From positions 24,850 through 88,849 of the forward strand of contig CALJTV010000009.1 of the NCBI GenBank assembly GCA_937975645.1: 64,000 nucleotides of DNA, given 5' to 3'. Below, one piece after another: positions 2,517 to 24,506 of the stretch. A model generated the notes under the pieces. The model made no database searches. It was given only the letters and a program-made list of their open reading frames with translations, and was not told the DNA's origin. The DNA is from an uncultured Dehalococcoidia bacterium. GTDB taxonomy: Bacteria > Chloroflexota > Dehalococcoidia > GIF9 > UBA5629. Position numbers and translations under genes: made by a program. Every line of letters starts with the position of its first letter. The stretch's first letter is position 1.

Positions 2517-3374
2517 TTGAATATAAGACTCACCTGCTGTGTCCTGCTGGTCGTCCTGTTCCTTATTCTCTCAATAGCGGTTGGCTGTATTCCCACCAGA
2601 GACGATATAACCCAGCCTAAGCTGAAGGTAGCCAGCACCACGAGCCTGTGCGATTCTGGGCTTTGGGAATGGCTTGAGCCGCTTTTTGAGGCAAAATATA
2701 GGACTGATCTGCAGGTACTATGTGTTGGCACCGGCGTAGCCATGCGCTATGGAGAGAGAGGGGATGTGGATGCGATTGTTGTTCATGACCCAGAAAGGGA
2801 GGAGAAGTTTATTTCTCAGGGGTATGGGGCTGTGCGAATGCCGTTTGCCTGTAATAAGTTTCTCATTGTGGGACCTGAAGATGACCCGGCGCGTATAAGG
2901 GGGCTGAAGCCGGAAGAAGCGTTTGCTAGGTTAGCTGCGTATGGTGATGCTACTTTCGTCTCCCGTGGTGACGAGTCCGGCACACATGTCAGGGAGAAAG
3001 AAATATGGCGGATGGTGGGTATCAATCATGAGCAGATTACGAAGGAACAGTGGTATGTGGAAGTTGGGTCAGGTATGGGCTTAACTTTGCAACTAGCTGC
3101 CGAGAGAAGAGGCTACACGCTTACTGACAGGGCAACTTTTCTAACCTTTAGAAAAAAGCTGGACATTGTGCCTCTGGTTGAGGAGGGCGAGATCATGCTC
3201 AATGTTTATTCAATTATCGTCGTCAATCCTGAGAAATGCCCCGGGGTGAATTATCAAGCTGCAAAGCTGCTTTCAGACTTTTTGCTCTCTAAAGAGGTGC
3301 AAGCTGTGTTGACTGATTACGGGGTGCAAGCATATGGGGAGCGGCTGTTCCTTCCCTGCTGCGATTGTAATTAG
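2517..3374 (+). CDS. tupA: tungstate/molybdate ABC transporter substrate-binding lipoprotein (TupA/WtpA-like)
   Basis: Reading frame of ORF 2391..3374. Likely start is the TTG at 2517, placed 7 nt after the AAAGGAGAG RBS. The N-terminus is a signal peptide with lipobox (LSIAVGC). The PBP-type fold is indicated by conserved blocks (TTSLCDSGLWEWLEPLFE, GDVDAIVVHD). It is followed by permease and ATPase genes. Confidence 0.75.
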   Translation: MNIRLTCCVLLVVLFLILSIAVGCIPTRDDITQPKLKVASTTSLCDSGLWEWLEPLFEAKYRTDLQVLCVGTGVAMRYGERGDVDAIVVHDPEREEKFISQGYGAVRMPFACNKFLIVGPEDDPARIRGLKPEEAFARLAAYGDATFVSRGDESGTHVREKEIWRMVGINHEQITKEQWYVEVGSGMGLTLQLAAERRGYTLTDRATFLTFRKKLDIVPLVEEGEIMLNVYSIIVVNPEKCPGVNYQAAKLLSDFLLSKEVQAVLTDYGVQAYGERLFLPCCDCN

Positions 3375-3422
3375 GAATTTTCACGGTGCTACCCGGATCT
3401 AATTCAGTCGGCTGATAAAGCA

Positions 3423-4109
3423 ATGGAAGAACTAGGGCGTGGCTTCGTTAAGGCGGTAGAGCTCATCGTCTCCCTTGATGCGGAGGTAGTGGAGATAACT
3501 GTGAGGTCACTGATGATCTCAGCGACATCTTGTGGTATTGCTTGTGCCATCTGCTTTCCACTGGGGGGACTGGTGCATTTCAGTTCTTTTCCGGGAAAAA
3601 AGTTGTTCATGAGCTTGGTGCAGACCCTGTACAGTCTGCCTACAGTGCTAGTAGGGCTGTTTGTTTTTGTGCTGCTCTCACGCTCGGGACCGCTTGGTAG
3701 CTTGGGGCTGCTGTTCACTCCAGCAGCCATGGTAATAGGGCAGGTAATTTTTGTCAGTCCGATTGTGCTCGGACTGGCTGTGTCTGCTTTGAATGGCTTG
3801 GACATCGCTTTGTACGACGCAGCCGTGGGTCTTGGTGCCAGCAAGTTTCAGGCTGTTTTACAGGTGATGAGAGAAGCCCGCTATGGCCTGCTTACAGCGG
3901 CGGTGATGGGTTTCGGGAGAGCTATCTCCGAGGTAGGGCTATCATTGATGGTTGGTGGTAATATAAAGGGGTTCACACGTACATTGACCACTGCCATTTC
4001 CCTTGAGACCTCCAAGGGCAACATTGAGCTGTCGATAGCACTGGGAATAGTATTGCTAGTGTTAGCCCTGATGGTGAATCTAGTAACAGGTTGGTTGCAA
4101 CGCAGGTAA
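3423..4109 (+). CDS. tupB: ABC transporter permease (tungstate/molybdate TupB-like)
   Basis: 228-aa polytopic membrane protein with an ABC permease signature region. It lies between the binding-protein and ATPase genes. Confidence 0.8.
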   Translation: MEELGRGFVKAVELIVSLDAEVVEITVRSLMISATSCGIACAICFPLGGLVHFSSFPGKKLFMSLVQTLYSLPTVLVGLFVFVLLSRSGPLGSLGLLFTPAAMVIGQVIFVSPIVLGLAVSALNGLDIALYDAAVGLGASKFQAVLQVMREARYGLLTAAVMGFGRAISEVGLSLMVGGNIKGFTRTLTTAISLETSKGNIELSIALGIVLLVLALMVNLVTGWLQRR

Positions 4110-4110
4110 A

Positions 4111-5202
4111 ATGGCATTGATAGAGGCTATCAAGCTGGAAAAATATTATCAGGGCAGGCAGGTGCTGAGAGGCATAAGTCTACAAATCGATAAAGGGGAA
4201 GTTTTGGCTCTTATAGGTCCCCGTGGTGCTGGGAAAACCACGCTTCTCAGAATCCTAGGCCTCCTGGAGCTACCATCAAGGGGCGAGGTCTATTTTGATG
4301 GTGTCAATGTGACTTCATCTGGACGTTTAAGGCTCTGGGCAAGGCGTAGGATGTCCTTTGTGGCGCAAAAGCCGGTGGTGTTTTCAGGGAGCGTTCGGGA
4401 CAATGTTGCCTGTGGTCTCAAGTGGCGTGGCAGAAACTCAAAGTCGGCGGCGGACAGGATCGAGGCTGCCCTGGGACTGATAGGGATGTCCGAATATGCT
4501 GACCGGGACGCTAAAGCCCTTTCTGTAGGCGAGATGCAGATGATGGCTCTATCCCGGGCACTGGTCGGCGAGCCAGAGGTGCTGTTTTTGGACGAGCCTA
4601 CAGCTAGTCTTGATCCAGTGTCAGCAGCAAGGGTAGAGACGGTTCTAGAGCGGCTAATTAAACTGCGAAATATGACAGTTGTGATGACAACCCATGATAT
4701 GGGGCAAGGACAAAGACTGGCATGGCGCATTGGGGTGTTGATGGCTGGGGAGTTGCTTCAAACAGGTGAACCCCGTGAGATATTCTGCTCGCCGGCGACC
4801 AGAGAGGTGGCAGAGTTCGTCGGTGTGGAGAATATTCTAGCAGGCGAGGTGGTAAGCAAGAGCGATAGCCTGGCGGTGATAGACATTGGTGGAGCTAGGC
4901 TGGAGGCACTCACCGAATGTAGGTTGGGTGACTTGGTGTGGGTAACCATCAGACCAGAGGATGTCACTTTTGCCAGGGTAAGAGAGCAGACCAGTGCAAG
5001 AAATGTGTTTCGGGGTGTTGTAACCAAAGTGGCAGGTGTTGGTGCTCTATTGCGGATTGAGGTTGACTGTGGTTTTCCTTTATTGGGAGTGTTGACTAAG
5101 AAATCGGCTGAGGATATGGGCATTGAGCGAGGTGATGAGGTCTATGTCAGCTTCAAAGCTACTACTGTGCATGTGATCAGGCGCCAGCAGTTAAAGCTCT
5201 GA
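4111..5202 (+). CDS. tupC: ABC transporter ATP-binding protein with C-terminal TOBE/MOP oxyanion-binding domain (TupC/ModC-like)
   Basis: Contains Walker A (GPRGAGKTT), ABC signature (LSVGEMQMMALSRAL) and Walker B (LFLDEPTASLD). A C-terminal extension of about 120 aa is typical of molybdate/tungstate transporter ATPases. Confidence 0.8.
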   Translation: MALIEAIKLEKYYQGRQVLRGISLQIDKGEVLALIGPRGAGKTTLLRILGLLELPSRGEVYFDGVNVTSSGRLRLWARRRMSFVAQKPVVFSGSVRDNVACGLKWRGRNSKSAADRIEAALGLIGMSEYADRDAKALSVGEMQMMALSRALVGEPEVLFLDEPTASLDPVSAARVETVLERLIKLRNMTVVMTTHDMGQGQRLAWRIGVLMAGELLQTGEPREIFCSPATREVAEFVGVENILAGEVVSKSDSLAVIDIGGARLEALTECRLGDLVWVTIRPEDVTFARVREQTSARNVFRGVVTKVAGVGALLRIEVDCGFPLLGVLTKKSAEDMGIERGDEVYVSFKATTVHVIRRQQLKL

Positions 5203-5233
5203 GCGCTAAGACGTTTTTTACAAGGGGAGTTTT

Positions 5234-5896
5234 TCATGTTTTCCTGTGGTTTTGTAACTGCTGAAGGAGCCAGGAACACCAAGCTTCAATCCCATGGCCG
5301 GATTTACAGGACACCTCAAAAATAGTCACTCTGGGGTTCAGGCCAGTGACCTTTTTATGAAAGCCGGCGAGGTCGAATTCCTGTAATGGGAGGAGGTCAA
5401 TTTTGTTTATTACCACCGCATCAGCTAGAGAGAACATAATAGGGTACTTGGCTGGTTTGTCGTCGCCTTCAGCAATACTTGAGACCACTACTTTCCTGTG
5501 CTCGCCAAGGGAAAAACCCGCCGGACAGATCAAATTGCCCACGTTCTCGATAAATAGCAAATCAATAGTCTTCAACGGCAGCTTCTCCAGCGCATTGGTA
5601 ATCATATGGGCTTCTAGGGAGCAGCTACCACCAGTGTTTATCTGGACTACGGGGATCCCCTCTTTGCTGATTCTATCGGCATCTATTTTGGAGGCGATGT
5701 CGCCTTCGATAACAGCCAGCCGTAATTGGTGACGCAGGTGTGCTATCGTGCCCAGGAGGAGGCTGGTCTTACCGGCGCCCGGAGACGACATGAGGTTAAT
5801 GGCTAGGATATTGTATCTGTCAAGCAGTCCTCTGTTTTGGGCAGCTATAGCATCGTTGGCACTGGCAATATTTTTTAGTACTTTTATTCGTTTCAT
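5234..5896 (-). CDS. hypB: hydrogenase nickel incorporation GTPase HypB
   Basis: Contains MKRIKVLKNIASANDA...NLMSSPGAGKTSLL (P-loop) and the CPAGFSLGE metal-binding region. The start is taken at the internal MKRIKV (5896) so it does not overlap hypA. Confidence 0.9.
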   Translation of the reverse strand: MKRIKVLKNIASANDAIAAQNRGLLDRYNILAINLMSSPGAGKTSLLLGTIAHLRHQLRLAVIEGDIASKIDADRISKEGIPVVQINTGGSCSLEAHMITNALEKLPLKTIDLLFIENVGNLICPAGFSLGEHRKVVVSSIAEGDDKPAKYPIMFSLADAVVINKIDLLPLQEFDLAGFHKKVTGLNPRVTIFEVSCKSGHGIEAWCSWLLQQLQNHRKT

Positions 5897-5901
5897 CGCA
5901 T

Positions 5902-6243
5902 CTATTCGACCTCTATGCTTTCGATGAAGCAGCTCTGCCCATTTGTTATCTCCAGATTGGTGCTGCGGCAGCAAGGACATGCCCAGCTAGAGTCTTCAAG
6001 CTTGAAACTGGTCTGGCAATCACGACAGTGCAGCTCGGCAGGCACCGTCTCGAAATCGATGCTCGCATTTTGAGCGATGCTGTCTTTTTTCAAGAAGTCA
6101 AAGTAGAACTGTATGCACTCTCCGACGACCCCAGATAGTTCCCCTATGATGAGTCTAATTTTTGTTATCTGGCTTGCCTGTGCTGCCTTAGCTTCGTTTA
6201 TAGCGATATCAAGTATGTTTTGCGTTATGGCTAGTTCATGCAC
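5902..6243 (-). CDS. hypA: hydrogenase nickel insertion protein HypA
   Basis: 113 aa beginning MHELAITQNIL, with a CRDC...CPCC zinc-finger pair typical of HypA. It is immediately upstream of hypB. Confidence 0.9.
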   Translation of the reverse strand: MHELAITQNILDIAINEAKAAQASQITKIRLIIGELSGVVGECIQFYFDFLKKDSIAQNASIDFETVPAELHCRDCQTSFKLEDSSWACPCCRSTNLEITNGQSCFIESIEVE

Positions 6244-10501: not shown

Positions 10502-10557
10502 GTCAGTACCTCGATTATCGGGTTAGAACTTATTTCACAAATATTATAGCAACTGAT

Positions 10558-10582
10558 ATAAATCATGTCAACCATGATTATA
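10558..10582. promoter_or_regulatory. inverted repeat in the hspR/hypF divergent promoter region (candidate operator)
   Basis: ATAAATCATG-tcaac-CATGATTATA has 7-bp perfect arms and 5-bp spacer, and sits in an AT-rich divergent intergenic region. It does not match the canonical HAIR or CIRCE consensus. Confidence 0.3.
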
Positions 10583-10693: not shown

Positions 10694-13006
10694 ATGGTTC
10701 GGGCAAAGAAACTGGAGTCAGCTAGGATCAGTGCTCGCGGTGTCGTTCAAGGTGTTGGTTTCAGACCTTTTGTATATCAGCTAGCGACTAAATACAATTT
10801 GAAGGGATGGGTCTGCAACACCTCGGAGGATGTGAGCATAGAAATTCAGGGAGAGCGCAGTCGGTTGGAGCAGTTTGTTGCTGAACTTCAAAACAATGCT
10901 CCACCGTTAGCGCGTATAGAGGAGGTGGTGGTGACCTATCGTCCCTGTGACGATTGCACCTATACAACGTTTGAAATACGACAAAGCATTGCTCAGGAGG
11001 GCAAGTACCAGCTTGTTTCGCCTGATATTGCGACTTGTGATGCTTGTTTGCGGGAAGTCTTTGACCCAGAGGACAGACGTTATCGCTATCCATTCACCAA
11101 TTGCACCAATTGTGGTCCGCGTTTTACTATCATAGAAGACATCCCTTATGACCGTCCTAAGACAACCATGCGGGCCTTCCGGATGTGCCCTGATTGTGAG
11201 GCTGAATACCATGACCCTCTAGACCGCCGCTTTCACGCGCAGCCCAACGCCTGTCCTAAGTGCGGACCGAGGCTCGAGCTGCTCGATGGTTGTGGCGAGA
11301 CTGTTGAGGTGACTGATGTGATCTCCGAAGCTTGTAAGCTATTGCTTGCAGGCAAAATCGTGGCGGTGAAGGGTCTTGGCGGGTTTTTGCTGGCTTGTGA
11401 TGCCACCAATGAGCAGGCAGTGGAGCTGCTTCGCCGTAGAAAGAGGCGACCTTTTAAACCTTTCGCGGTGATGGTCGCCAGTGTGGAAGAGGCAAAAAAG
11501 CACTGCTATGTATCCGAAGCCGAGGAGAAAATACTCGTGTCACCCCAGTCGCCTATAGTCTTGATGTGGTGGAAGCCAGAGTCGACCATTTGTCATGCTG
11601 TGGCACCGGACTTGAAATATCTGGGGGTAATGCTCCCTTACACTCCTTTGCACCATCTTCTGATGCGGCAGGTGAGGGTGCCTCTGGTGATGACTAGCGG
11701 CAATATCAGCGAGGAGCCAATAGCCAAGGACAACGATGAGGCTTTAAGGCGGCTTTCCGGGATTGCCGATTATTTTGTGACGCATGACCGGGACATCTAT
11801 GCCAGGTATGATGATAGTGTGGTTATTGTTGAAAGGGGGCAGTTTCAATTGTGCCGCCGGGCACGTGGTTATGCCCCCTATCCTATCCACCTCAAGTTCC
11901 GTGCTAGGCAAGTGCTTGGTTGTGGGGCAGAGGAGAAAAATACCTTCTGCCTGATCAAGGACAATTATGCTTTTGTCAGCCAGCATATCGGTGATATGGA
12001 AAACCTGGAGACCTTAGAACATTTTGAAAGCACGCTGAATCTTTATAAAAAATTGTTTCGTGTTCAACCGGAGGTGGTAGCTTATGACCTCCACCCTGAG
12101 TATCTTCCTACCAAGTATGCCATTGAACTTGGTTCAAAGGAAAAGGGTATTACGCTGGTTCCGGTGCAACACCATCACGCACATATAGTTAGCTGCATGG
12201 TAGACAATGGGTTTGACGAACCAGTCATAGGCGTTGCCTTTGATGGTACAGGGTATGGCAGCGATGGTTATATCTGGGGTGGGGAATTCTTGATAGTGGA
12301 CTACAGAAAATCACAGAGAGTGGGACATCTGGAGTATTTGCCTTTACCTGGTGGGGCAACAGCCATAAAGCGTCCTTATCGCGTCGCCATTGGTTATGCC
12401 ATTAAGCTGCTGGGCGAGGAAGCTCTCGCTGGGTTAGAGATATTGGAGCGGGTTGATCCGGTTGAGGTGGATGTCATCAGACATCAGATTAAGAGCGGAT
12501 TTAATTCCCCGCTAACTTCCAGCATGGGGCGCCTTTTTGACGCGGTTTCTGCCCTTCTAGGGGTCAGAAGCACTGTCGATTACGAGGGACAGGCAGCGGT
12601 TGAGTTAGAGATGGTAGCTTATGATGCTGACAGCCGGTTCAGCAAGGGCTGTTATCCGTTCTCCATAGTTGCGCGGGACGGTATTAATGTGGTCTATCTG
12701 AGTGAGCTTTTTGCGGGGATAGTCGCAGACTTGTATAATAAGCTGGATGTACCGACGATTTCGGCAAAATTTCATACCACCGTGGCAAGGTTAATTTTGG
12801 AAATGTGTCAGCTTATCAGGGAACAGACAGGGATAAAGCATGTGGTGCTGAGCGGCGGGGTTTTTCAAAACCGTTTGCTGCTCAGGAAAGTCATACCTTT
12901 GCTGGAAGGTTTCGGCTTTTCGGTATTGACTCACAGGCAAGTACCTTGCAATGACGGTGGGATTTCGCTGGGTCAAGCGGTGGTAGCTAATTTTAGCGCT
13001 AGTTGA
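10694..13006 (+). CDS. hypF: [NiFe] hydrogenase maturation carbamoyltransferase HypF
   Basis: 770 aa containing an acylphosphatase domain (VQGVGFRPFVY), two Zn-finger CxxC pairs, a YrdC domain and a Kae1-like domain. Confidence 0.95.
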   Translation: MVRAKKLESARISARGVVQGVGFRPFVYQLATKYNLKGWVCNTSEDVSIEIQGERSRLEQFVAELQNNAPPLARIEEVVVTYRPCDDCTYTTFEIRQSIAQEGKYQLVSPDIATCDACLREVFDPEDRRYRYPFTNCTNCGPRFTIIEDIPYDRPKTTMRAFRMCPDCEAEYHDPLDRRFHAQPNACPKCGPRLELLDGCGETVEVTDVISEACKLLLAGKIVAVKGLGGFLLACDATNEQAVELLRRRKRRPFKPFAVMVASVEEAKKHCYVSEAEEKILVSPQSPIVLMWWKPESTICHAVAPDLKYLGVMLPYTPLHHLLMRQVRVPLVMTSGNISEEPIAKDNDEALRRLSGIADYFVTHDRDIYARYDDSVVIVERGQFQLCRRARGYAPYPIHLKFRARQVLGCGAEEKNTFCLIKDNYAFVSQHIGDMENLETLEHFESTLNLYKKLFRVQPEVVAYDLHPEYLPTKYAIELGSKEKGITLVPVQHHHAHIVSCMVDNGFDEPVIGVAFDGTGYGSDGYIWGGEFLIVDYRKSQRVGHLEYLPLPGGATAIKRPYRVAIGYAIKLLGEEALAGLEILERVDPVEVDVIRHQIKSGFNSPLTSSMGRLFDAVSALLGVRSTVDYEGQAAVELEMVAYDADSRFSKGCYPFSIVARDGINVVYLSELFAGIVADLYNKLDVPTISAKFHTTVARLILEMCQLIREQTGIKHVVLSGGVFQNRLLLRKVIPLLEGFGFSVLTHRQVPCNDGGISLGQAVVANFSAS

Positions 13007-13019: not shown

Positions 13020-13274
13020 ATGTGTCTAGCAGTGCCTGTACAAGTTATCGGGGTTTATGGTGACGAAGCTGAAGTTGATATCGGTGGTGTGAGGCGGCGT
13101 GTAAGCATTGTGTTGACACCTGAAGTACAGGTGGGCGACTATGTACTGCTTCACACCGGTTATGCTATAAACGTCATTGATGAAGCCGAGGCACAGGAAA
13201 CGTTGCAGATCCTTGCGGAGATGGCGCAAGTGGATGGGGAACTTCCCGATAACGTGTCGGGAAGCAGGAACTGA
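13020..13274 (+). CDS. hypC: hydrogenase assembly chaperone HypC
   Basis: Begins MCLAVPVQVIG... with the conserved N-terminal MC(L/I)A(V/I)P motif. Confidence 0.85.
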   Translation: MCLAVPVQVIGVYGDEAEVDIGGVRRRVSIVLTPEVQVGDYVLLHTGYAINVIDEAEAQETLQILAEMAQVDGELPDNVSGSRN

Positions 13275-13299
13275 GAACAAGTGTCGTAATGTCGCGCCG

Positions 13300-13983
13300 A
13301 TGTTTTTTGCTCTCTTGATTACTCTTTTACTTGTTGGTTGTATTTCTCCAGCGACGTTTTTAGGTGGTGCTGACGTTGCAGACCATGGGAGTGGAACCGA
13401 TCTTGGCTTTGTGTGTGAAGAGGTCTTGCAACACCTGAAGGCGGCCAAGCAAATAGTCTCCCAGATAAGTAGCTTTACCTGGGCAGAGTTTACCACTTTA
13501 GGTGTCGTTCTGCCTCCACCGGGGGTGTGTGCTACCGGGACGACCTATCTTGCAGAGAAGAATTCTGTACCCATCGGGCTTGGTTGGATGCCGCTTACAG
13601 ACAAACTGTCTTTCCGGGCTACTGCCGATAACCTTGCGGTTGTTTGTGACAATTGTCTTTCCCTAGCTGGAAAGGTGTGCTTAGCTGATAAAGGGCTGCC
13701 TCTAGATGAGAGGCAAGAGCTGTGGTACCAGCTAGATTCGGCACTAACTGGTGCTGTGTATCTTGTTTCAGCTCACAAAGATGTTGTAGCGCACCAGGTC
13801 GTTCCGGAAACGGAGTCCCAGTTTGGGCGCTCTAGCGATGATATCAGAAAGAAATATGGTTATAAATTCAAGGCTTGGTGTGATCAGTACTTTATTTTAC
13901 TCGATGGTCTTCAGTATCACCTTGAGAAAGCAAAACAAACAGCTTCAATCATGAGTAGGGAACAAGATGAAGTTTATCGATGA
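13300..13983 (+). CDS. hypothetical cysteine-rich lipoprotein embedded between hypC and hypD
   Basis: Taken from the frame of ORF 13177..13983, with the start chosen at MFFALLITLLLVGC (signal peptide and lipobox). No recognisable domain. It contains 8 Cys. Its 3' end overlaps the hypD start by 17 nt. The RBS is weak, so the exact start is uncertain. Confidence 0.55.
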   Translation: MFFALLITLLLVGCISPATFLGGADVADHGSGTDLGFVCEEVLQHLKAAKQIVSQISSFTWAEFTTLGVVLPPPGVCATGTTYLAEKNSVPIGLGWMPLTDKLSFRATADNLAVVCDNCLSLAGKVCLADKGLPLDERQELWYQLDSALTGAVYLVSAHKDVVAHQVVPETESQFGRSSDDIRKKYGYKFKAWCDQYFILLDGLQYHLEKAKQTASIMSREQDEVYR

Positions 13984-15049
13984 GTTCCGGAATGTCGATC
14001 TGGGCAAGGGTATAATCGCCAAGATCCACAAGTTGTCTACCAGGCCAGTGGCACTGATGGAATTTTGTGGTGGACATACGGTGTCTATTATGAGGAATGG
14101 GATACGGCAATTGTTACCGCCCGCAGTCCGGCTGCTTTCCGGTCCTGGATGTCCAGTATGTGTTACCGCTAATGTAGATATAGACACCGCGATTGCTTTG
14201 GCTGGCTTGCCCGATGTAATAATTACCACCTTTGGAGATATGTTGAAAGTGCCTGGGAGCTACTCTAGTCTGCAGAAAGCCAGAGCCGATGGCGCAGACA
14301 TAAGGGTTGTCTATTCTACTCAGGATGCTCTGCAGATTGCTCGGGCAAACCCGGCGCATAAAGTTGTCTTTATCGGCATCGGGTTTGAGACCACGGCGCC
14401 GACGATCGCTGCTGCGGTGCTTCAGGCTAAAACTGAGGGGATAAGAAACTTTTATGTCCTCTGCCTGTTGAAATTGTGTCCGCCGGTTATGAAGGCATTG
14501 CTCGATTTAGGTGAGATCAAGCTAGACGGCATAATTTGTCCCGGACACGTGAGCGCTATTATCGGTTCCAAGCCTTACGAGTTCATCCCTAAAGAGTATG
14601 GCGTTGCCTGTGTGGTCTCCGGATTTGAACCGCTTGACATATTACTTTCCGTAGCTATGCTAGTAAATCAGATAGAGATGGGAAAGCCCTGTGTGGAGAT
14701 AGCTTACCGTCGTGGGGTCAAACCGGGAGGTAATGTGAGGGCTTTGCAGCTTATCGATACTGTATTCGAAGTTAGCGAGGCTGACTGGCGTGGCATCGGG
14801 AGCGTTCCACTCAGCGGCTTAAAATTTAGGAAGGAGTTTGAGCAATTCGATGCGCGTTCGCAGTTTACGGTCAGTATCCCGCCTGTTAGGGAAGCAAGAG
14901 GGTGTCTATGTGGTGCCATCTTGCGTGGGGTGAACACGCCAGTCGATTGCGCTCTATTTCGTGAAGTGTGCACGCCTGAAAGCCCTGTTGGTCCGTGTAT
15001 GGTGTCGTCAGAAGGTGCGTGTGCCGCCTACTATCAGTACGGGGTGTGA
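13967..15049 (+). CDS. hypD: hydrogenase maturation Fe-S protein HypD
   Basis: Begins MKFIDEFRN... and contains the CGGHT, GPGCPVCV and C-terminal FCxxC motifs. Confidence 0.9.
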   Translation: MKFIDEFRNVDLGKGIIAKIHKLSTRPVALMEFCGGHTVSIMRNGIRQLLPPAVRLLSGPGCPVCVTANVDIDTAIALAGLPDVIITTFGDMLKVPGSYSSLQKARADGADIRVVYSTQDALQIARANPAHKVVFIGIGFETTAPTIAAAVLQAKTEGIRNFYVLCLLKLCPPVMKALLDLGEIKLDGIICPGHVSAIIGSKPYEFIPKEYGVACVVSGFEPLDILLSVAMLVNQIEMGKPCVEIAYRRGVKPGGNVRALQLIDTVFEVSEADWRGIGSVPLSGLKFRKEFEQFDARSQFTVSIPPVREARGCLCGAILRGVNTPVDCALFREVCTPESPVGPCMVSSEGACAAYYQYGV

Positions 15050-15050
15050 T

Positions 15051-16067
15051 ATGAGAGACAGAAACAGGACTATTCTTCTTGCTCACGGCAGTGGAAGCAA
15101 AATCAGCCACGAACTTATAGAGAAAAAACTCGTACCACCTTTAGCCAATCCGATACTCTGCCGGCTTGATGATTCTGCTGTTTTTGAACTTAATGGTTCC
15201 CGTTTTGCTTTTACTACTGATAGCTATGTTGTGAGTCCTATTTTCTTTCCTGGCGGTGACATCGGTCGGCTGGCAGTCTGTGGCACTGTAAACGATTTAG
15301 CTATGAACGGTGCGAGTCCGTTATATCTCAGCCTGTCTTTTATTATCGAGGAGGGGCTTAGCTTTGAGGAGCTTGAACGGGTGCTCGATTCTATCAGAGA
15401 TGCTGCTGTGGAGGCAGGGGTAAGCATAATCACTGGCGATACTAAGGTGGTGAACAGAGGGACTGCCGACAAGTTGTTTATCAACACCTCGGGCATAGGT
15501 GCAGTGATGGATGGGGGGAATATTTCCGGTGCCAATGCCCAAGTCGGGGACAAGATAATTCTTAGCGGGTCTATTGGTGACCATGGTATTGCCGTGATGA
15601 GCCAGCGCGAAGGATTGAGGTTCTCTGTGCCTGTCCAAAGCGATTGCGCTCCATTAAATAAAATGGTAGCAGGAATGCTTGCTGTCTCATCGAAGATACA
15701 CTGTCTCCGCGATCCCACTCGTGGAGGACTTGCTACCACACTTAATGAAATAGCCCAGCAGTCCGACGTTGGCATAAAGATAGAAGAGGAGAAGATAGTT
15801 GTTCATGATGGCGTAAGAGCAGCCTGCGAACTACTTGGTTTCGACCCTCTTTATGTTGCTAACGAGGGTAAGCTGGTCGCCTTTGTTGCTCCCGAGGATG
15901 CAGAGAAGGTTCTGGAGAAGATACGGCAAGACCGCTATGGAGGTGAGGCTGCTATTATTGGGGAGGTGACTGGGGACCATAGGGGCAAGGTGGTGATGAA
16001 GACCAGACTGGGTGCCTCACGTATTGTGGACATGCTCGCTGGGGAGCTCTTGCCCAGAATTTGCTAG
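15051..16067 (+). CDS. hypE: hydrogenase maturation protein HypE (carbamoyl dehydratase)
   Basis: AIR-synthase-like fold ending in the conserved C-terminal PRIC. Start is the ATG at 15051, 1 nt after the hypD stop. Confidence 0.9.
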   Translation: MRDRNRTILLAHGSGSKISHELIEKKLVPPLANPILCRLDDSAVFELNGSRFAFTTDSYVVSPIFFPGGDIGRLAVCGTVNDLAMNGASPLYLSLSFIIEEGLSFEELERVLDSIRDAAVEAGVSIITGDTKVVNRGTADKLFINTSGIGAVMDGGNISGANAQVGDKIILSGSIGDHGIAVMSQREGLRFSVPVQSDCAPLNKMVAGMLAVSSKIHCLRDPTRGGLATTLNEIAQQSDVGIKIEEEKIVVHDGVRAACELLGFDPLYVANEGKLVAFVAPEDAEKVLEKIRQDRYGGEAAIIGEVTGDHRGKVVMKTRLGASRIVDMLAGELLPRIC

Positions 16068-16231: not shown

Positions 16232-17122
16232 ATGGCTAAAGTTAAGGTTCAGGAAGTCCCTGTGGTGTGGATACAAACTGGCAGTTGTACTGGTTGTTCA
16301 GTTTCAGTCTTGAACTCTGTTAGCCCCAGCATCAAAAACGTGCTTATTGACGAAGTTGTTCCCGGAACACATATCAGTCTCAGGTTTCAGGCAACTGTAA
16401 TGGCAGGCCAGGGAGAAGCTGTGCTTAAAGTTCTTGAAGGTACACCGAAGAAGGACAGGGATGGCTATCTTTTGGTGGTTGAGGGTGCTATACCTACAAA
16501 GGACGGCGGGATCTATGGCACTCTAGGGGAGAGAGATGGCAAACCTTTACCGATGGTGGTATGGGTCGAAGAGTTAGTCAAGAATGCTGTGGCGATAGTT
16601 GCTCTAGGCACGTGTGCTGCGTTCGGTGGTATAGCTGCCGGTAGCCCTAATCCCGGTGGCTATTCTGGTGTCGATAGTCTTTTGAAGGAGCGAAGAATCA
16701 ATAAACCACTGATAAACGTGCCAGGCTGTCCGCCTCACCCTGACTGGTTTGTAGGCACCATAGCTGCGATACTGCTCCAAGGTTTGCCTAAACCAGAAGA
16801 CTTGGACGAGTTCAAGCGCCCTAAGGCTTTCTATGGGAAGTTGATCCACGAAAATTGTCCGCGGCGGGCTTATTTTGACGAGGGAAAATTTGCCAGAAAG
16901 TTCGGTGAGCCGGGGTGCCTTAATGAACTTGGTTGTAAGGGGCCAGTGACCTATGCCGATTGTCCTCTCAGACTGTGGAATCACGGGACCAACTGGTGTA
17001 TCGGTGCCGGATCGCCTTGCATTGGCTGCTGTGAACCGGGATTCCCGGACCTGATGGCACCGTTCTATCAGAAACTTACTGATGCCGCATTACCTGCCAT
17101 AGGTGTGGAGCAGAAGAAGTAG
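16232..17122 (+). CDS. [NiFe] hydrogenase small subunit, no Tat signal (cytoplasmic uptake-type)
   Basis: MAKVKVQEVPVVWIQTGSCTGCSVS corresponds to the mature N-terminus of small subunits, with no RRxFxK twin-arginine leader. The C-terminal region carries ligands for medial and distal clusters (CPRRAYFDEG...CIGCCEP). Confidence 0.85.
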   Translation: MAKVKVQEVPVVWIQTGSCTGCSVSVLNSVSPSIKNVLIDEVVPGTHISLRFQATVMAGQGEAVLKVLEGTPKKDRDGYLLVVEGAIPTKDGGIYGTLGERDGKPLPMVVWVEELVKNAVAIVALGTCAAFGGIAAGSPNPGGYSGVDSLLKERRINKPLINVPGCPPHPDWFVGTIAAILLQGLPKPEDLDEFKRPKAFYGKLIHENCPRRAYFDEGKFARKFGEPGCLNELGCKGPVTYADCPLRLWNHGTNWCIGAGSPCIGCCEPGFPDLMAPFYQKLTDAALPAIGVEQKK

Positions 17123-17153
17123 CACATTTGAGAAAGATGCAGGAGGGTTAGAA

Positions 17154-18713
17154 TTGAGCAAGATTACAGTAGATCCGGTCACTCGTATTGAAGGGCATCT
17201 TAAAATAGAGGTTGTTGTGGAGAAAGGCGTGGTCAAGGACGCTTATAGTTCGGGGATGATGTTTCGTGGCATTGAGCTGATTTTGCGAGGAAGAGACCCT
17301 CGTGATGCTCAGAGGTATACTCAGCGAATTTGCGGAGTCTGTCCTACCAGCCACTCCATAGCAGCTGCGTTGAACCTAGACAGTGCTTTTGGTCTCGCTG
17401 ACAAGATACCTGACAACGGGCGTATTGTGCGCAATCTCATTCTCGGAGCAGCCCACATTGCTGACCATATCTTGCACTTCTATCATCTGGCTGCGCTCGA
17501 CTATGTCGATGTGACCAAGGTGGCTAAGTACGATGGTAATGACCCTGCGCTCAACTCGGTAAAGCGGTTTATTGAGCGTGGGGAGCTGGCACCGTTTGTA
17601 CCTCGATATGAGGGAGACTATCGCCTGAGCGACAAGATGAACATAGAGGCTACAGCTCACTATGTGAAGGCGCTGGAGATGAGACGCAAAGCTCAGGAGA
17701 TGCTAACTATTTTTGGGGGCAAGATGCCTCACAATATGGCTGTGGTTCCCGGTGGTGTTACCGAAATTGTTACTGTAGACAAGATAGCCTCTTTCTTATG
17801 GAGGCTCAATGAGCTCAGGGAATTTATCGATAACGTCTATATACCTGATGTTCTTGCTGTAGCCGAGGCTTATTCTGACTACTTTGAGATCGGTACAGGG
17901 TGTGGTAACCTGCTCTCTTATGGGCTGTGGGATCTGGAGGGAAATAACCCCGATTACACCAAACGGAAGAGGTTGATCAAGCAGGGTACGGTATCTATGG
18001 ATCTAAAGGTGGGCAGTCTGGATCCCAATAAGATCGCCGAGTATGTGAAGTACTCGTGGTATGCAGATTCAAGCACAGGGAAGCATCCCACTCAAGGTGT
18101 GACCGACCCGCAGTATGGTAAAAAGGGAGCCTATTCTTGGGTAAAAGCACCGCGGTACGATGGCAAAGTTTATGAGGTAGGACCGCTGGCTGGCATAGCT
18201 GTTACCTATGCAAGCGGCGAGCCAGCAGTAAAGAACCTCGTTGATTCTGTGCTGTCGAAATTTAAAGCGAGCCCGAAGGCGCTATTTTCAGTGCTGGGCA
18301 GGCATGCCGCCCGCGCCTTGATAACTAAATACGTTGCTGATAGTATGCCCGAGTGGCTGCTTCAGCTTAAACCTGGTGAGCCAGCTTATATAGACTATCA
18401 GATACCCGATCAGGCTCTTGGTATGGGGCTCACAGATGCTGCTAGGGGTGCTCTGGGGCATTGGGTGGAGATAAAAGATAAGAAAATTGCCAACTACCAG
18501 TGTGTGGTGCCCAGCACATGGAACATGAGCCCGAGGGATGACCGGGACCAGCCCGGTCCTGTGGAGCAGGCTCTCATTGGCACCAAGATAAAGGACGAAA
18601 AAAATCCGTTTGAAATAGGGCGCATTGTGCGCTCTTTCGATCCCTGCTTAGCTTGCGCTATCCATTTGATTAGACCGAAGGGGGAAATTGTTGGGACGTT
18701 CAGGACCGGTTAG
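17154..18713 (+). CDS. [NiFe] hydrogenase large subunit
   Basis: Contains the L1 motif RICGVCPTSH and the C-terminal L2 motif DPCLACAIH followed by a short extension (protease-processed). The TTG start at 17154 is 6 nt after the AGGAGGG RBS. Confidence 0.9.
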   Translation: MSKITVDPVTRIEGHLKIEVVVEKGVVKDAYSSGMMFRGIELILRGRDPRDAQRYTQRICGVCPTSHSIAAALNLDSAFGLADKIPDNGRIVRNLILGAAHIADHILHFYHLAALDYVDVTKVAKYDGNDPALNSVKRFIERGELAPFVPRYEGDYRLSDKMNIEATAHYVKALEMRRKAQEMLTIFGGKMPHNMAVVPGGVTEIVTVDKIASFLWRLNELREFIDNVYIPDVLAVAEAYSDYFEIGTGCGNLLSYGLWDLEGNNPDYTKRKRLIKQGTVSMDLKVGSLDPNKIAEYVKYSWYADSSTGKHPTQGVTDPQYGKKGAYSWVKAPRYDGKVYEVGPLAGIAVTYASGEPAVKNLVDSVLSKFKASPKALFSVLGRHAARALITKYVADSMPEWLLQLKPGEPAYIDYQIPDQALGMGLTDAARGALGHWVEIKDKKIANYQCVVPSTWNMSPRDDRDQPGPVEQALIGTKIKDEKNPFEIGRIVRSFDPCLACAIHLIRPKGEIVGTFRTG

Positions 18714-19215
18714 TAACAACGAAGGTTTTGCCCGTTGTCCAGAGATCGCCGTGGTTGGCGTCGGTAATGTACTGTTGAGCGACGATGGCGCAGGTGTACA
18801 TTTAGTCCACAGACTAGCTGAAAGGATCGACGATAGCGATGTTGCCATTGTCGATGCTGGCACTGTACCCGAGCTGTTTTTGCTAGCAGATGAGAGGATT
18901 AAGAAATTGATTTTTGTTGACGCTGCTAGGGGAGGGGGACTACCTGGCTCCATATATCGTTTCACTTTGGACGATCTTGAGGCGTCATCTGGGCTACCGG
19001 TTTCGTTGCATGACCTCACTTTGTTGGATAATCTGAGGTTATCGGAGCTTTTGGGTAGGAGACCGGAGTCTGTAATTATCATAGGTATAGAGCCGGCGAC
19101 TACCGATTTTGGTATACAGCTTTCTCTCGAGGTTGAGGAGGCATTGCCTAAAGCAATAGAGTTGGTGCTCAAGGAGATCGAAGAGTTTTCAAAACAGTCT
19201 ACGGAGGTAAAGTGA
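18688..19215 (+). CDS. hydrogenase maturation endopeptidase (HyaD/HybD/HupD family)
   Basis: Contains IAVVGVGNVLLSDDGAGVHLV, the conserved block of the hydrogenase C-terminal proteases. It overlaps the large-subunit gene. The exact start is uncertain. Confidence 0.8.
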   Translation: MLGRSGPVSNNEGFARCPEIAVVGVGNVLLSDDGAGVHLVHRLAERIDDSDVAIVDAGTVPELFLLADERIKKLIFVDAARGGGLPGSIYRFTLDDLEASSGLPVSLHDLTLLDNLRLSELLGRRPESVIIIGIEPATTDFGIQLSLEVEEALPKAIELVLKEIEEFSKQSTEVK

Positions 19216-19216: not shown

Positions 19217-19900
19217 ATGATAGTGTCTCAGTTAAAGCCGCTACAGGAGATCCTTGGCTATTTGAATGGGGAAAGAAGCGTTTTCATAGTGGGTTGCAAG
19301 GGGTGTGCTGAAGTATGCCATACGGGCGATGAGGCACAAGTATTGGACATGAAGCAAAAGCTAGAACAGGAGGGTAAGGCCGTCACTGGGTATTGTGTGA
19401 TCGACTTTCTCTGTGACAAAGCGCTGGTAAAGATGCGGTTAATGGCTCACCAAAGCGAGATACAGGCTGCGGACTCTCTGTTAGTTATGACTTGTGGGAT
19501 TGGGGTACAGGCTGTAGCTGCAGTGGTCAATAAGCTAGTTCACCCAGCGGCCAACACTATCAATATGGGGGGGAGTAGGGGTGAGTGGCGTGGTGCCGAA
19601 CGTTGTCGTGAATGTGGTGATTGTGTTCTGGATATGACTGCTGGTATATGTCCTTTGACTGCATGTACTAAGGGGCTGCTAAACGGGCCGTGTGGCGGTG
19701 CCAAAGATGGCAGGTGCGAGGTCGAACCGGAGGTCAGGGAATGTGGCTGGCACCTTATTTATGAGAGACTGAATAAGCTTGGCAGACTGGACAAAATGAC
19801 CGGTCGCCCGGTGCTGAAAGACTACAGGAAAATGATGCCGCCAAAAGAACTGAGGTCGACGTTAATGTGGGCGCTGGAACAGCAGGAGACCAAAGTCTAG
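19217..19900 (+). CDS. metV: methylene-THF reductase small, Cys-rich subunit (MetV-like, MTHFR C-terminal-like domain)
   Basis: Cys clusters (CKGCAEVCH; CRECGDCV...CPLTACTKGLLNGPCGG) resemble acetogen MetV. It is directly followed by metF and starts 2 nt after the hydrogenase protease stop. Confidence 0.7.
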   Translation: MIVSQLKPLQEILGYLNGERSVFIVGCKGCAEVCHTGDEAQVLDMKQKLEQEGKAVTGYCVIDFLCDKALVKMRLMAHQSEIQAADSLLVMTCGIGVQAVAAVVNKLVHPAANTINMGGSRGEWRGAERCRECGDCVLDMTAGICPLTACTKGLLNGPCGGAKDGRCEVEPEVRECGWHLIYERLNKLGRLDKMTGRPVLKDYRKMMPPKELRSTLMWALEQQETKV

Positions 19901-19920
19901 CAACCTGTTAAAGGAGGTAA

Positions 19921-20793
19921 ATGTTGATGACTCTACGGGAAAAGCTCGGCAGTGGTAAATTTGTGGTGACTGCGGAAGTCGGTCCAGCTAAGGGGGTGGA
20001 CACCCATGAGTTTCTAGAGAATGTGGAGTTGCTGAAAAACCGTGTGGATGCAATCAATTGTACTGACCAGCAGAGTGCGGTGATGCGACTTGGTTCGCTA
20101 GCAGGTTGCTACCTTATCAGACAGAAGGGGGGCGAGCCCATCTTTCAGATGACATGTCGCGACCGGAATCGCATTGCCTTACAATCTGACTTGCTAAATG
20201 CCTACGTTTTTGGGATAGAGAACGTCCTGTGTCTCACGGGCGATTTTGTTACACTGGGTGACCATCCGGACGCGAAACCTGTGTTTGACCTCGACTCTGT
20301 ATCACTGCTTTATGCTGCTAAGCAGTTAGAGCAGGGGAAGGACTTGGCGGGAAAAGATCTCACTGGTGCCCCCAGGTTCTTCTTGGGTGCCTGCGTGACG
20401 CCTGGTGCTGAACCGTTGGAGCCGCAGCTCTTGAAAATGGAAAGGAAAGTCAAGGCAGGTGCCAAGTTCTTCCAGACCCAAGCGGTCTATGAACCTAAAA
20501 AGTTTGAGACTTTTATGAAGGAGGCAAGGAAATTTGGGGTACCTGTGCTTGTGGGCATAGTGTTACTGCGGTCAGCAGCGATGGCACGGTTCATGAACAA
20601 AAATGTTGCTGGGATACACGTGCCTGATGAGCTGATTGCAGAAATGGACAGAGCAGAGAATAAGCTGCAGAAGGGTGTTGAGATAGCTGCTCGATTGATC
20701 AGAGAGATGAAGGATATGTGTCAAGGTGTGCATATTATGGCGATCGGGCTAGAGTCGAAAGTCCCTGCTATTCTGGATGCAGCTGGGCTGTAG
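19921..20793 (+). CDS. metF: 5,10-methylenetetrahydrofolate reductase
   Basis: 290 aa MTHFR TIM-barrel (VVTAEVGP...INCTDQQSAVMR...CLTGDF). Confidence 0.85.
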   Translation: MLMTLREKLGSGKFVVTAEVGPAKGVDTHEFLENVELLKNRVDAINCTDQQSAVMRLGSLAGCYLIRQKGGEPIFQMTCRDRNRIALQSDLLNAYVFGIENVLCLTGDFVTLGDHPDAKPVFDLDSVSLLYAAKQLEQGKDLAGKDLTGAPRFFLGACVTPGAEPLEPQLLKMERKVKAGAKFFQTQAVYEPKKFETFMKEARKFGVPVLVGIVLLRSAAMARFMNKNVAGIHVPDELIAEMDRAENKLQKGVEIAARLIREMKDMCQGVHIMAIGLESKVPAILDAAGL

Positions 20794-22478: not shown

Positions 22479-22632
22479 ATTCAAGCTACCTCTGTACGGG
22501 ATAAGTTTTTGGCAGCGCCGTATGCTAAATTCTCGGTATCCTATCCGAGTATAATTACGGTTGACTGTCATATGATGTAATGCTACAATACGTACTCGGT
22601 TTGCTTTGAGTAATGCGACAAAGGGGGCTCCT

Positions 22633-23511
22633 ATGGTTCTGATCGGTGAAAGTATACACATAATTTCTCGGCGTGTCAGCGAGGCTGTTAGAGACAGGAA
22701 TGCCAGTGTGATTCAAGAGTTAGCTAAGGCGCAGGCTGAGGCGGGAGCTGATTACATAGATCTAAACCTCGGACCAGCGAAGAAAGACCCAGTAGGGATG
22801 ACGGAGTGGTTGGTGAACGTAGTTCAAGAGGTCACTAATTTGCCATTATCTATTGATACACTGAACCCTATAGCGATGGAAGCTGGTTTGAGACTTTGTA
22901 AAAAGCGTCCTTTGCTGAATTCAGCTTCTGGAAGGACTGACAGCAAGGCTGAGATGCTACCCCTGGCTAAAAAATACAATTGCGATGTGGTCATATCGGT
23001 GCTTACTGATAAAGGTTGCCCGCCCGATGTAGATTCCAGAACTGAGAGCATTATGGAGACGGTGGCTTACGCGAATGAGCTTGGAATCCCCAATGAAGAC
23101 ATCTGGGTTGATCCTATTATTCTACCTGTAAGCGCCGACCAGAAGCAGGTGCGAGAAGCACTTGAGTTTATCAAGATACTCCCTGACCTGTTGCCGGGTG
23201 TGAAATCCACGGTAGGTTTGTCGAACGTGTCAAATGGTACCCCAGAGGAGCTCAGGGGTATTCTCAACCGGACTTATATGGTCATGCTGGGGCGGTATGG
23301 ACTTTATTCTGCGATTGCTGACACGTTAGATCATGAGCTGGTCAAGTTGAACAGAGGCGAGCTACCGCACATAGTTGACCTCATTTATAAGGCTATGGAC
23401 AGCGAGCCAATAGACATGTCCTCTCTCTCCAAGCAGGAACAGGACTATGTCAAGACTACCAGGGTATTGATGGGAGAGACACTCTACTCCCATGCCTGGT
23501 TGGAAGCATAA
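22633..23511 (+). CDS. acsE: methyltetrahydrofolate:corrinoid/iron-sulfur protein methyltransferase (AcsE, pterin-binding)
   Basis: Pterin-binding barrel (MVLIGESIHIISRR...GADYIDLNLGP...) like Moorella AcsE. ATG at 22633 follows an AAGGGGG RBS. Confidence 0.85.
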   Translation: MVLIGESIHIISRRVSEAVRDRNASVIQELAKAQAEAGADYIDLNLGPAKKDPVGMTEWLVNVVQEVTNLPLSIDTLNPIAMEAGLRLCKKRPLLNSASGRTDSKAEMLPLAKKYNCDVVISVLTDKGCPPDVDSRTESIMETVAYANELGIPNEDIWVDPIILPVSADQKQVREALEFIKILPDLLPGVKSTVGLSNVSNGTPEELRGILNRTYMVMLGRYGLYSAIADTLDHELVKLNRGELPHIVDLIYKAMDSEPIDMSSLSKQEQDYVKTTRVLMGETLYSHAWLEA

Positions 23512-23533
23512 ATCTTTGAAAAGGAGCTGAGCC

Positions 23534-24439
23534 ATGGAATATAAGGCACCGGTAGAAAGTTATTCTGGAAGGGTGGTGGAGGTAGTTATTGGGAGGGGCG
23601 AAAAGGCACTCAAGATCGGTGGCGAAAATGTTCTACCATTTCATTTTTTTGAGGGGGCGATTGCCAACCCTCCCAGATTAGCCCTGGAGGTGCTCGATAG
23701 TGTTCCGGTGGGCTGGTCGCAATGGGAAGTCAACCCTTATAAAGATGTTGTTTCTGAGCCGGTTCAGTGGGCAAACAGAGCACTAGAACTCGGGGCTGAC
23801 CTCGTCTGCTTGCGTCTAGTGGGCACCGACCCAACAGGTCAGAATGTACCTGGGGATAAGGCTGCTGAGCTGGTGAAAAGTGTGGCTTCAGCAATACGGT
23901 CACCACTCATTGTGTATGGCTCTGGAGACGAGGTCAAGGATGTCGAGGTGCTGACAAAGGTAGCAGAAGTGTGTGCAGGCGAAGCCCTGCTTCTGGGGCC
24001 AGTGGTAAAGGAAAACTATGAGCCTATAAGCAAAGCAGCTCTGGATTATGGTCACTGCATAATTGCGCAGAGTCCACTTGATATAAACCTGGAAAAAGAA
24101 CTGAATGTAAAGCTCCTGAAATCGTTTCCTAGAGAGCGCATAGTGATCGACCCCTTGAGTTCAGCCCTCGGCTACGGTATGGAGTACAGTTTCACCATTA
24201 TGGAGAGGACAAAGCACATCGGCATCATGTTCGGTGATAGCACCATGCAGATGCCCATCATAGCTGACCTTTCTAGTGAGTGTGCCAAGACCAAACAAGC
24301 GAAAGAGAGTGAGAAACAGGGGTTACTCTGGGAGCTCGTCACAGCTATAAGCCTCTTGCTTGCTGGCGCCAATATCGTAGTACTCAGGTTGCCACAGAGC
24401 TTAAAAATATTGAGAGAGGTCCTTGAAGGTAAGTTATAA
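23534..24439 (+). CDS. acsD: corrinoid iron-sulfur protein small subunit (AcsD/CdhD)
   Basis: 301-aa TIM-barrel-like CFeSP small subunit with conserved blocks (LVGTDPTGQ...IVYGSGD...IDPLSSALGYG). Confidence 0.85.
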   Translation: MEYKAPVESYSGRVVEVVIGRGEKALKIGGENVLPFHFFEGAIANPPRLALEVLDSVPVGWSQWEVNPYKDVVSEPVQWANRALELGADLVCLRLVGTDPTGQNVPGDKAAELVKSVASAIRSPLIVYGSGDEVKDVEVLTKVAEVCAGEALLLGPVVKENYEPISKAALDYGHCIIAQSPLDINLEKELNVKLLKSFPRERIVIDPLSSALGYGMEYSFTIMERTKHIGIMFGDSTMQMPIIADLSSECAKTKQAKESEKQGLLWELVTAISLLLAGANIVVLRLPQSLKILREVLEGKL

Positions 24440-24506
24440 AATTGATAATCATTTCTGATTCTGCTAGAATATAATCAGCCCAACCACTGTGGAAAGGAGC
24501 CTCAGC

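Follow-up and report, generated by a model that had tools for sequence, protein, structure and literature searches.

A predicted lipoprotein gene between hypC and hypD in a hydrogenase-maturation operon of a Dehalococcoidia lineage

In the analyzed stretch of DNA from an uncultured Dehalococcoidia bacterium (64,000 nucleotides (nt) of contig CALJTV010000009.1, assembly GCA_937975645.1, called the window in the following), the hydrogenase-maturation genes hypC and hypD are separated by an open reading frame (ORF) of 227 codons. This ORF, here named gene X, is located on the + strand and extends from the ATG at 13300 to the TGA at 13981-13983 (13300-13983). Gene X is a constrained coding gene which is as old as the surrounding operon, since its synonymous divergence equals that of the neighbouring genes and its ratio of nonsynonymous to synonymous divergence is low. 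On balance, we slightly favour the reading that X is an exported, lipid-anchored four-helix-bundle protein and a long-time resident of the hyp operon as a co-transcribed passenger. The pair hypC-hypD belongs to the most tightly coupled maturation gene pairs and is stably split in one Dehalococcoidia lineage by the gene of this predicted exported protein, whose family is nameless, has no Pfam or NCBIfam model and has no structural relative. With gene X, a well-known operon shows a new variant of its architecture, and the protein belongs to an undescribed family, while nothing yet demonstrates new biology.

Coding status, conservation and history of gene X

A search of 5.8 billion clustered proteins revealed 12 homologous clusters with 54-100% identity and a length of 219-251 amino acids (aa), all of them nameless. 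In a scan with one genome per GTDB species, four metagenome-assembled genomes of Dehalococcoidia/Chloroflexota (loci L001-L004) were found to carry an X homologue in the identical place. The gene order clpB, merR-like gene, hypF, hypC, X, hypD, hypE, [NiFe] small subunit (hupS) and large subunit (hupL) is common to these four loci and the window. An earlier note on this DNA, made from the sequence alone, had proposed a look at the hyp operons of relatives for the same insert. All close relatives found carry it in this slot, as orthologues of 47-72% identity.

Selection was analyzed by Nei-Gojobori estimates of nonsynonymous (dN) and synonymous (dS) divergence. The dN/dS of X is 0.19-0.20 for the window against L001 and L002, 0.20 for L001 against L002 and 0.35 in the closest pair, L003 against L004. 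For hypD, hypE, hypF and hupS the comparison of the window with L001 and L002 gives 0.05-0.09, and the X protein evolves about three times faster than its neighbours. Between the window and L001, X has a dS of about 1.0 and hypD one of 0.86, and the dS of X equals that of the neighbouring hypD, hypE and hypF.

The gene is part of a hypF-C-X-D-E unit, which starts with the carbamoyltransferase gene hypF (10694-13006; Pfam Acylphosphatase, zf-HYPF, Sua5, HypF_C and HypF_C_2). It is followed by hypC (13020-13274), encoding 84 aa with the N-terminus MC... (Pfam HupF_HypC, E 1.7e-27), gene X, hypD (13967-15049; Pfam HypD, E 1.8e-149) and hypE (15051-16067, ATG at 15051; Pfam AIRS and AIRS_C). All of these Pfam-identified neighbours are located on the + strand, so that the co-orientation described in the earlier note is correct, and the 17-nt overlap between the 3' end of X and the 5' end of hypD, which it had also reported, is exact (13967-13983). 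The conserved C-terminal tail of X, EQDEVYR, results from reading the conserved hypD start MKFIDE in an alternative frame. The same overlap of 17 nt occurs in L001 and L002; overlap and tail are missing in L003, L004 and L007. Given this tight packing, X would be co-transcribed with hypD. No internal promoter or terminator was found, the consensus matches in 10.4-19.4 kb not being above the shuffled expectation, and no Rfam element was found in the X region.

Beyond the close relatives, only 27 representatives of the X family, mostly 220-270 aa in length, were identified at E <= 1e-3 when 1.84 billion representative proteins were searched exhaustively with a HMMER profile. Distant members located between or next to hypC and hypD are P0013 (L007), P0016 (L008), P0017 (L009/L010, with a relative in L022), P0019 (L014), P0021 (L015) and P0022 (L016). 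In these loci X is 22-48% identical to the window protein and HypD 70-82%. Other members are located outside hyp operons (P0014, P0020, P0027, P0030 and P0034), where P0014 adjoins a fn3/purple-acid-phosphatase-like protein, P0020 a T2SSE ATPase and P0034 glycosyltransferases. In the X tree, P0014 and P0015 are nested among the hyp-linked branches. The X family is very small, unannotated and fast-evolving, and so far occurs in Dehalococcoidia-like genomes.

HypD was used as query for a metagenome scan, which gave 80 loci with 55-88% HypD identity. With a profile hidden Markov model of the X family, X is detected in just three of these 80, namely L017, L018 and L022. In 64 of the 68 loci with both genes visible, hypC and hypD abut, overlap or are at most 168 nt apart. 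All X-carrying loci fall within one clade of a HypD tree, which was calculated by neighbour-joining from this one protein with 200 bootstraps. The close clade including the window has 100% bootstrap support and X in every member. In the wider clade (88% bootstrap), the carriers L008 and L022 are mixed with the non-carriers L019, L021, L024, L025 and L026, which were never monophyletic in the 200 bootstraps and otherwise keep the hypF-C-D-E(-hupSL) order. The simplest history is apparently a single old insertion, in which one branch of the family would have entered the hypC-hypD junction in the ancestor of a single Dehalococcoidia clade, with subsequent vertical inheritance within the hypF-C-X-D-E transcription unit and loss in several sublineages. 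The absences could alternatively reflect allele replacement.

The earlier note had called X a foreign gene. The GC content of X is 2-3 points below that of its neighbours, and in the window the GC content at third codon positions (GC3) of X reaches z = -3.1. Despite this deviation of three standard deviations, a recent horizontal transfer is not supported. The composition of the X orthologues tracks the host in each relative, therefore X is not a recent import; in addition, its dS equals that of hypD, hypE and hypF, and X is present in all members of the clade with 100% bootstrap support. From the description of X as the gene of an exported protein that splits hypC and hypD, the coding insert, the lipobox and the lack of a known domain hold, whereas a recent foreign origin finds no support.

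Export signal, predicted fold and start codon

Rules of the PROSITE PS51257 type for bacterial lipoproteins demand a lipobox [LVI][ASTVI][GAS]-C after at least 6 uncharged residues, a Lys or Arg within the first 7 residues and the lipobox Cys at position 15-35. The signal peptide with lipobox proposed in the earlier note was recovered. The N-terminus of the window protein, MFFALLITLLLVGC, contains the pattern L-V-G-C, which ends at Cys14 (codon 13339-13341) and satisfies the lipobox rule; hydrophobic h-region and lipobox together cover 13300-13341 (+). This segment is the sole hydrophobic segment of X, and no second transmembrane helix is present. Among close homologues the lipobox Cys is invariant (13 of 13), and a Cys occupies the lipobox column in 27 of the 32 members of a family alignment. 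The P0017 group carries an N-in signal anchor without the lipobox Cys. From the signal peptide and lipobox, or from the signal anchor in the P0017 group, the X domain is predicted to be located outside the cell. X would be exported via Sec and is a predicted lipoprotein, with lipidation likewise predicted. Export by the twin-arginine translocation (Tat) pathway was considered and rejected. The twin-arginine motif (S/T-R-R-x-F-L-K) is not conserved among X orthologues, which have one R or no R at all except for L004 (MSRRFTF) and the frame-restored reading of the window (MSRRCFF), where RR is found.

After Sec export, the lipid would hold X on the outside of the cytoplasmic membrane, and anchor and folded domain would be joined by a flexible linker of about 20 residues. 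This linker corresponds to the variable residues 15-34 (13342-13401, +), whose alignment columns are poorly conserved and which are modelled with low confidence (predicted local distance difference test score (pLDDT) < 50 for residues 1-32). The folded domain comprises residues 35-226 (13402-13977, +) with four long helices (35-57, 106-128, 135-177 and 180-226), for which the AlphaFold2 (AF2) pLDDT is mostly > 90. The AF2 model of the window protein, a four-helix bundle, has a pLDDT of 83 (core > 90), and the model of the hyp-linked member P0016, 28% identical to the window protein, reaches 88.5 with the same architecture. Both models consist of a disordered anchor/linker, an elongated four-helix bundle and a three-stranded beta cap with GVVLPPPGVCATGTTYLAE...W-P-L. 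The cap is located at one end of the bundle (strands 67-71, 83-86 and 95-98) and belongs to the most conserved segment of the protein, residues 59-103 (13474-13608, +), with F59, W61, GVVLPPPGVCATGTTYLAE and W96-P-L. W61 and L149 are the sole positions without variation across the whole family, and at least 90% conservation is reached at F59, G68, L103, L145, Y186, F190 and A211.

The earlier note had found no detectable domain, and the database searches agree. Pfam gave nothing at or below E = 0.1 (best 0.12, to unrelated families), NCBIfam gave no match, and a PDB sequence/profile search with X was equally empty. A Pfam search with 24 family members identified no usable domain either, and none of them matched a hydrogenase-maturation family. 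Foldseek searches of the PDB with the two models revealed no natural structural relative. The best matches are de novo designed maquette bundles (E 3e-3, TM 0.5-0.6, P0016 model). A claudin/TARP-like topology, with non-significant Foldseek matches, was rejected, since the helices of X are amphipathic and not transmembrane. A metagenomic family member of 435 aa, P0037, is a fusion of the bundle lipoprotein domain to a C-terminal domain of the 3-keto-disaccharide-hydrolase/DUF1080 type (PF06439, E 6e-7). This fusion hints at a surface or glycan-related context of the family.

Eight cysteines had been counted in the earlier note; the product of ATG 13300 has seven, of which one belongs to the lipobox and six to the mature part. 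For Cys39 and Cys127 co-occurrence was analyzed across the 32 aligned family sequences. Both are present in 17, a single one in 1 and neither in 14 sequences (phi 0.94). Being gained and lost together, the two residues appear to behave as a structural disulfide, which would suit an extracytoplasmic protein better than a metal site. Cys77 is part of the strongly conserved cap motif, and a CxxC motif (Cys116/Cys119) is found in most members; P0011 and P0012 have Tyr in place of both Cys116 and Cys119, and P0009 has Ser in place of Cys119. The family as a whole has no invariant Cys, His, Asp or Glu. The folded part of X can be assumed to be a four-helix bundle of elongated shape whose beta cap is small and highly conserved, and disulfides probably stabilise it.

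The start of X had been called ambiguous in the earlier note. No recognisable Shine-Dalgarno sequence precedes ATG 13300, and a concrete cause of the ambiguity was found in a frame-shifted ancestral start codon. In the relatives X starts at the ATG of a TAATG, which is invariant in 6 aligned loci, and the product reads M-x-x-R-x-x-F-A-L-L...G-C. The corresponding ATG 13289 of the window is located 15 nt behind the hypC stop codon (TGA, 13272-13274). It is out of frame with X because the T-run at 13303-13308 is one base short of that of the relatives (a 1-nt alignment gap). With the 6 T of the window, ATG 13289 opens only a 9-codon remnant, MSRRCFLLS followed by a stop (13289-13318, +). With 7 T it would give MSRRCFFALLITLLLVGC..., a textbook lipoprotein precursor with the Cys at 18 and K/R in the first 7 residues, as in most orthologues (Cys18, R4). 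Two starts are in frame in the window as it stands. ATG 13300 (MFFALLITLLLVGC...) places the Cys at 14, and ATG 13234, located inside hypC and used in the database gene call P0001, adds 22 N-terminal residues and places it at 36. Both forms have no K/R in the first 7 residues and fail the PROSITE-type rules for charge and Cys position. The K/R is also missing from the n-region of three other family members (P0002, P0020 and P0022), so the ATG-13300 form may still work.

The T6 run and the following G (13303-13309, +) form a heptamer T_TTT_TTG in the frame of ATG 13289, on which a -1 slip would yield MSRRCFFALL.... Programmed -1 frameshifting is nevertheless not supported. No stimulating RNA structure was found after the heptamer (the fold of 13310-13400 has z = -0.16, with its stem beginning 24 nt downstream), and the relatives, all of them in frame, do not share the shift.

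It is conceivable, though clearly not the favoured case, that the missing T is an assembly or sequencing error and that the true start is ATG 13289 with the canonical precursor MSRRCFFALLITLLLVGC... as product. The 7-T N-terminus fits the consensus of the family and meets all PROSITE-type rules, which neither of the in-frame alternatives does, and the remaining ORF is intact with every clade-invariant residue kept. On the other hand, the 249-aa product with the 6-T reading is identical in NCBI, ENA and Logan, although these entries probably go back to the same reads. Moreover, a run of 6 or 7 T is short for an Illumina homopolymer error, and with the n-region K/R also missing from P0002, P0020 and P0022 the ATG-13300 form could function. 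Such an error would touch only the start of X and is compatible with a passenger as well as with an accessory function. Alternatively, the window copy may carry a real indel and a usable downstream start. Unless the 6-T run is an assembly error, the window protein, if made, would start at ATG 13300 or ATG 13234 with an atypical signal peptide.

Passenger or hydrogenase accessory

As a passenger, X would most likely be tied to hydrogenase maturation by co-expression only, trapped in the operon and not a cytoplasmic Hyp component. Cargo genes were also observed in other hyp operons of this lineage. Between hypC and hypD, a PD40 beta-propeller lipoprotein of 341 aa (L049, 1889-2914) and a CARDB-domain lipoprotein of 392 aa (L061, 287-1465) were found, both unrelated to X. 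Upstream of hypD in the hypC-hypD gap of L020 (115-1662), a HicA toxin gene and a DUF2283 gene are accompanied by a duplicated 44-residue fragment of the hypD 5' end (793-912), which looks like an insertion scar. The X-carrying locus L008 holds a class-V aminotransferase gene between hypF and hypC (2900-4075) and a PhD/ParE pair between X and hypD (5208-5742). Further examples are a 416-aa membrane protein resembling the major facilitator superfamily between hypF and hypC in L057/L063 (about 1392-2642), and a RAYT-like ORF and an uncharacterised 122-aa ORF (L037, 3941-4309) between hypD and hypE, the positions of such cargo including L092 2920-3483 and L094 4126-4485. Gaps of at least 250 nt occur between hypF and hypC in 11 of 48 loci and between hypD and hypE in 5 of 79 loci, and hypC-hypD as the sole insertion hotspot was rejected on account of these other large gaps.

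The adjacent hydrogenase was inspected for its own export signal. Residue 7 of the [NiFe] small subunit aligns with residue 6 of the mature D. baculatum protein, and its gene has a strong Shine-Dalgarno sequence (aaaggagg) and stops in all upstream frames. With its small subunit starting at the mature N-terminus, the hydrogenase carries no Tat signal and is probably cytoplasmic.

Several points weigh against a mere passenger. The order hypC-X-hypD was kept while X fell to 22-30% identity at a HypD identity of 70-82% (L008, L009/L010, L014, L015, L016 and L022), which is usually a sign of functional coupling. Clear purifying selection acts on X, which hence has some function. Three unrelated exported lipoproteins are found at hypC-hypD in different lineages, which could reflect selection for co-expressed surface proteins and not chance. 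The contigs on which distant members are found outside hyp operons are short. The HypD tree was built from one protein by neighbour-joining, and its nodes implying multiple losses have only 60-70% support. Finally, export, lipidation and disulfides of X are predictions from the sequence.

We consider it unlikely, but worth weighing, that X serves [NiFe]-hydrogenase biogenesis as a dedicated extracytoplasmic accessory factor, which would either capture Ni or Fe on its membrane tether and hand it over to an importer or sense metal or H2-related conditions outside the cell. Both functions would account for its retention in the hyp operon. Besides the purifying selection, the slot between hypC and hypD is kept down to about 22-30% X identity in at least six divergent sublineages. 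The junctions are tight, with hypC/X overlaps of 4 nt in L008 and 11 nt in L009 and the X/hypD overlap of 17 nt in the window, L001 and L002. A further argument is the strongly conserved cap motif with Cys77, together with the CxxC of Cys116/Cys119 in most members. However, both residues of this CxxC are replaced by Tyr in P0011 and P0012 and Cys119 by Ser in P0009, there is no invariant Cys, His, Asp or Glu, and Cys39/Cys127 are disulfide-like. P0014, located outside a hyp operon, is nested together with P0015 in the hyp-linked X branches, and X is missing from nested hyp operons with otherwise the same synteny and is dispensable in these lineages. No similarity was found to NikA, HupE/UreJ or other known metal-uptake components. 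HypC, HypD, HypE and HypF act in the cytoplasm, whereas the X domain is predicted outside, and the known ancillary maturation proteins are all cytoplasmic (PMC12134894). The suggestion of the earlier note that X could be a metal scavenger or membrane anchor for hydrogenase maturation loses ground, given the lack of an invariant ligand, the disulfide-like Cys39/Cys127, the members outside hyp operons, the absence from nested operons and a hydrogenase without Tat signal. Literature on lipoproteins in hyp operons or on Dehalococcoidia hyp genes was searched, and nothing relevant was found.

In a more specific and still more doubtful form of this idea, the X family would be the first extracytoplasmic component functionally tied to [NiFe] cofactor assembly, a membrane-tethered helical bundle co-expressed with HypC and HypD in a Dehalococcoidia clade and securing or reporting Ni or Fe from outside. 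The recurrence of PD40 and CARDB lipoproteins at hypC-hypD would then be a result of selection that couples surface proteins to maturation.

It appears quite improbable that X is disabled in this genome, i.e., that the frameshift took the proper start and left a young pseudogene heading for loss as in sister lineages. The ancestral start is out of frame and gives only the 9-codon peptide, no Shine-Dalgarno sequence precedes ATG 13300, the product of which violates two of the PROSITE-type lipoprotein rules, X was lost repeatedly within the clade, and its GC3 is the lowest among the window genes (z = -3.1). Yet all 227 downstream codons are open and the clade-invariant residues are all kept, the window copy, compared with L001 and L002, has a dN/dS not above that of L001 against L002, an in-frame ATG is located 11 nt downstream of the old one, and the intact orthologues also show a lower GC3. 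It is virtually untenable that hypC and hypD are separated by a non-coding spacer in which an ORF arose by chance. Only the missing Shine-Dalgarno sequence ahead of ATG 13300 and the missing domain match could be cited for it, and against it stand the 12 homologous clusters and 27 distant representatives, the shared synteny, a dN/dS of about 0.2 with synonymous sites near saturation, the confident AF2 models and the abutting or overlapping hypC and hypD in related loci without X.

If X is a passenger, it provides a clean case of a streamlined, promoter-poor genome parking a fast-evolving surface-protein gene in an essential operon, and a caution against annotation by guilt-by-association. If it is tied to hydrogenase biogenesis, an extracytoplasmic step would be added to a pathway that is held to be wholly cytoplasmic. 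Being small and well defined, with two confident models and a conserved cap motif, the family is an easy target for expression and for metal- or ligand-binding tests.

Neighbouring genes and comparison with known systems

Several further features were identified in the window. The [NiFe] hydrogenase large subunit in 16232-18713 is most similar to periplasmic group-1 [NiFe]/[NiFeSe] enzymes of Desulfovibrio (E 1e-139). Directly after the hydrogenase, genes for a HycI-type protease and MetV/MetF are located at 18688-19215 and 19217-20793. Hydrogenase and MetV/MetF together hint at a cytoplasmic H2-linked methylene-tetrahydrofolate reductase module beside Wood-Ljungdahl genes. The region 22606-34501 contains an archaeal-type carbon monoxide dehydrogenase/acetyl-CoA synthase (CODH/ACS, cdh) cluster with CdhD/E-like, Prismane/CODH alpha (with Fer4 insert), epsilon and beta subunits, DUF166 and a CooC-like ATPase, and also holds NuoE/NuoF-like subunits and DUF3786.

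About 4.5 kb upstream of hypF, hypA (5902-6243, 113 aa) and hypB (5234-5980, CobW/HypB/UreG domain) were found on the - strand, therefore the hypABCDEF set in the window is complete. A perfect sigma-70 promoter (TTGACA-17-TATAAT, extended TG) at 10543-10571 (-) is located upstream of the merR-like gene and clpB, divergent from hypF. A Moco/tungsten riboswitch (RF01055, 80 bits) at 2403-2523 (+) overlaps the start of the longest ORF for a PBP_like_2 binding protein, therefore the true start of this protein lies downstream of the riboswitch. Together with the permease and the TOBE-domain ATPase that come next (2391-5202), the binding protein probably forms a molybdate/tungstate ABC importer. A T-box leader (RF00230, 106 bits) was identified at 2021-2282 (-) upstream of the gene for anthranilate synthase component I (535-1986, -).

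X was compared with several known systems. The ancillary factors HypA-F, HoxL, HoxV, HupF and HupK as well as HypX are all cytoplasmic and have no signal peptides (PMC12134894). Like such ancillary [NiFe] maturation proteins of hyp, hox and hup operons, X is located inside a hyp operon, co-oriented and tightly packed with hypC and hypD. It differs from them by its signal peptide and lipobox and matches none of their Pfam or NCBIfam models. With the sensor domains 4HB_MCP, TorS and McpS, X shares a long antiparallel helical bundle that is predicted to lie outside the membrane. However, X has neither a second transmembrane helix nor a cytoplasmic signalling module, its beta cap is absent from these sensors, and the Foldseek matches to TorS and McpS are non-significant (E 0.4-1.6, TM about 0.2).

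Csp copper-storage proteins are Cys-lined four-helix bundles belonging to Pfam DUF326, some of which are exported. X is likewise a predicted four-helix bundle with several Cys, but it has only six mature Cys, which are not conserved in the family and of which one pair is disulfide-like, and it gives no DUF326 match. The best structural matches, the maquettes (PDB 6z0c and 5vju), are artificial proteins with a generic long-bundle geometry, without homology to X and without a beta cap. Proteins of the Sec/signal peptidase II class (PS51257 type) constitute a targeting class and not a functional family, and the window protein differs from them by an n-region without K/R and a Cys at 14, because the ancestral start is frame-shifted. 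With these lipoproteins X shares the h-region, the L-V-G-C lipobox, the Cys that is invariant among orthologues, a hydrophilic mature part and a flexible linker.

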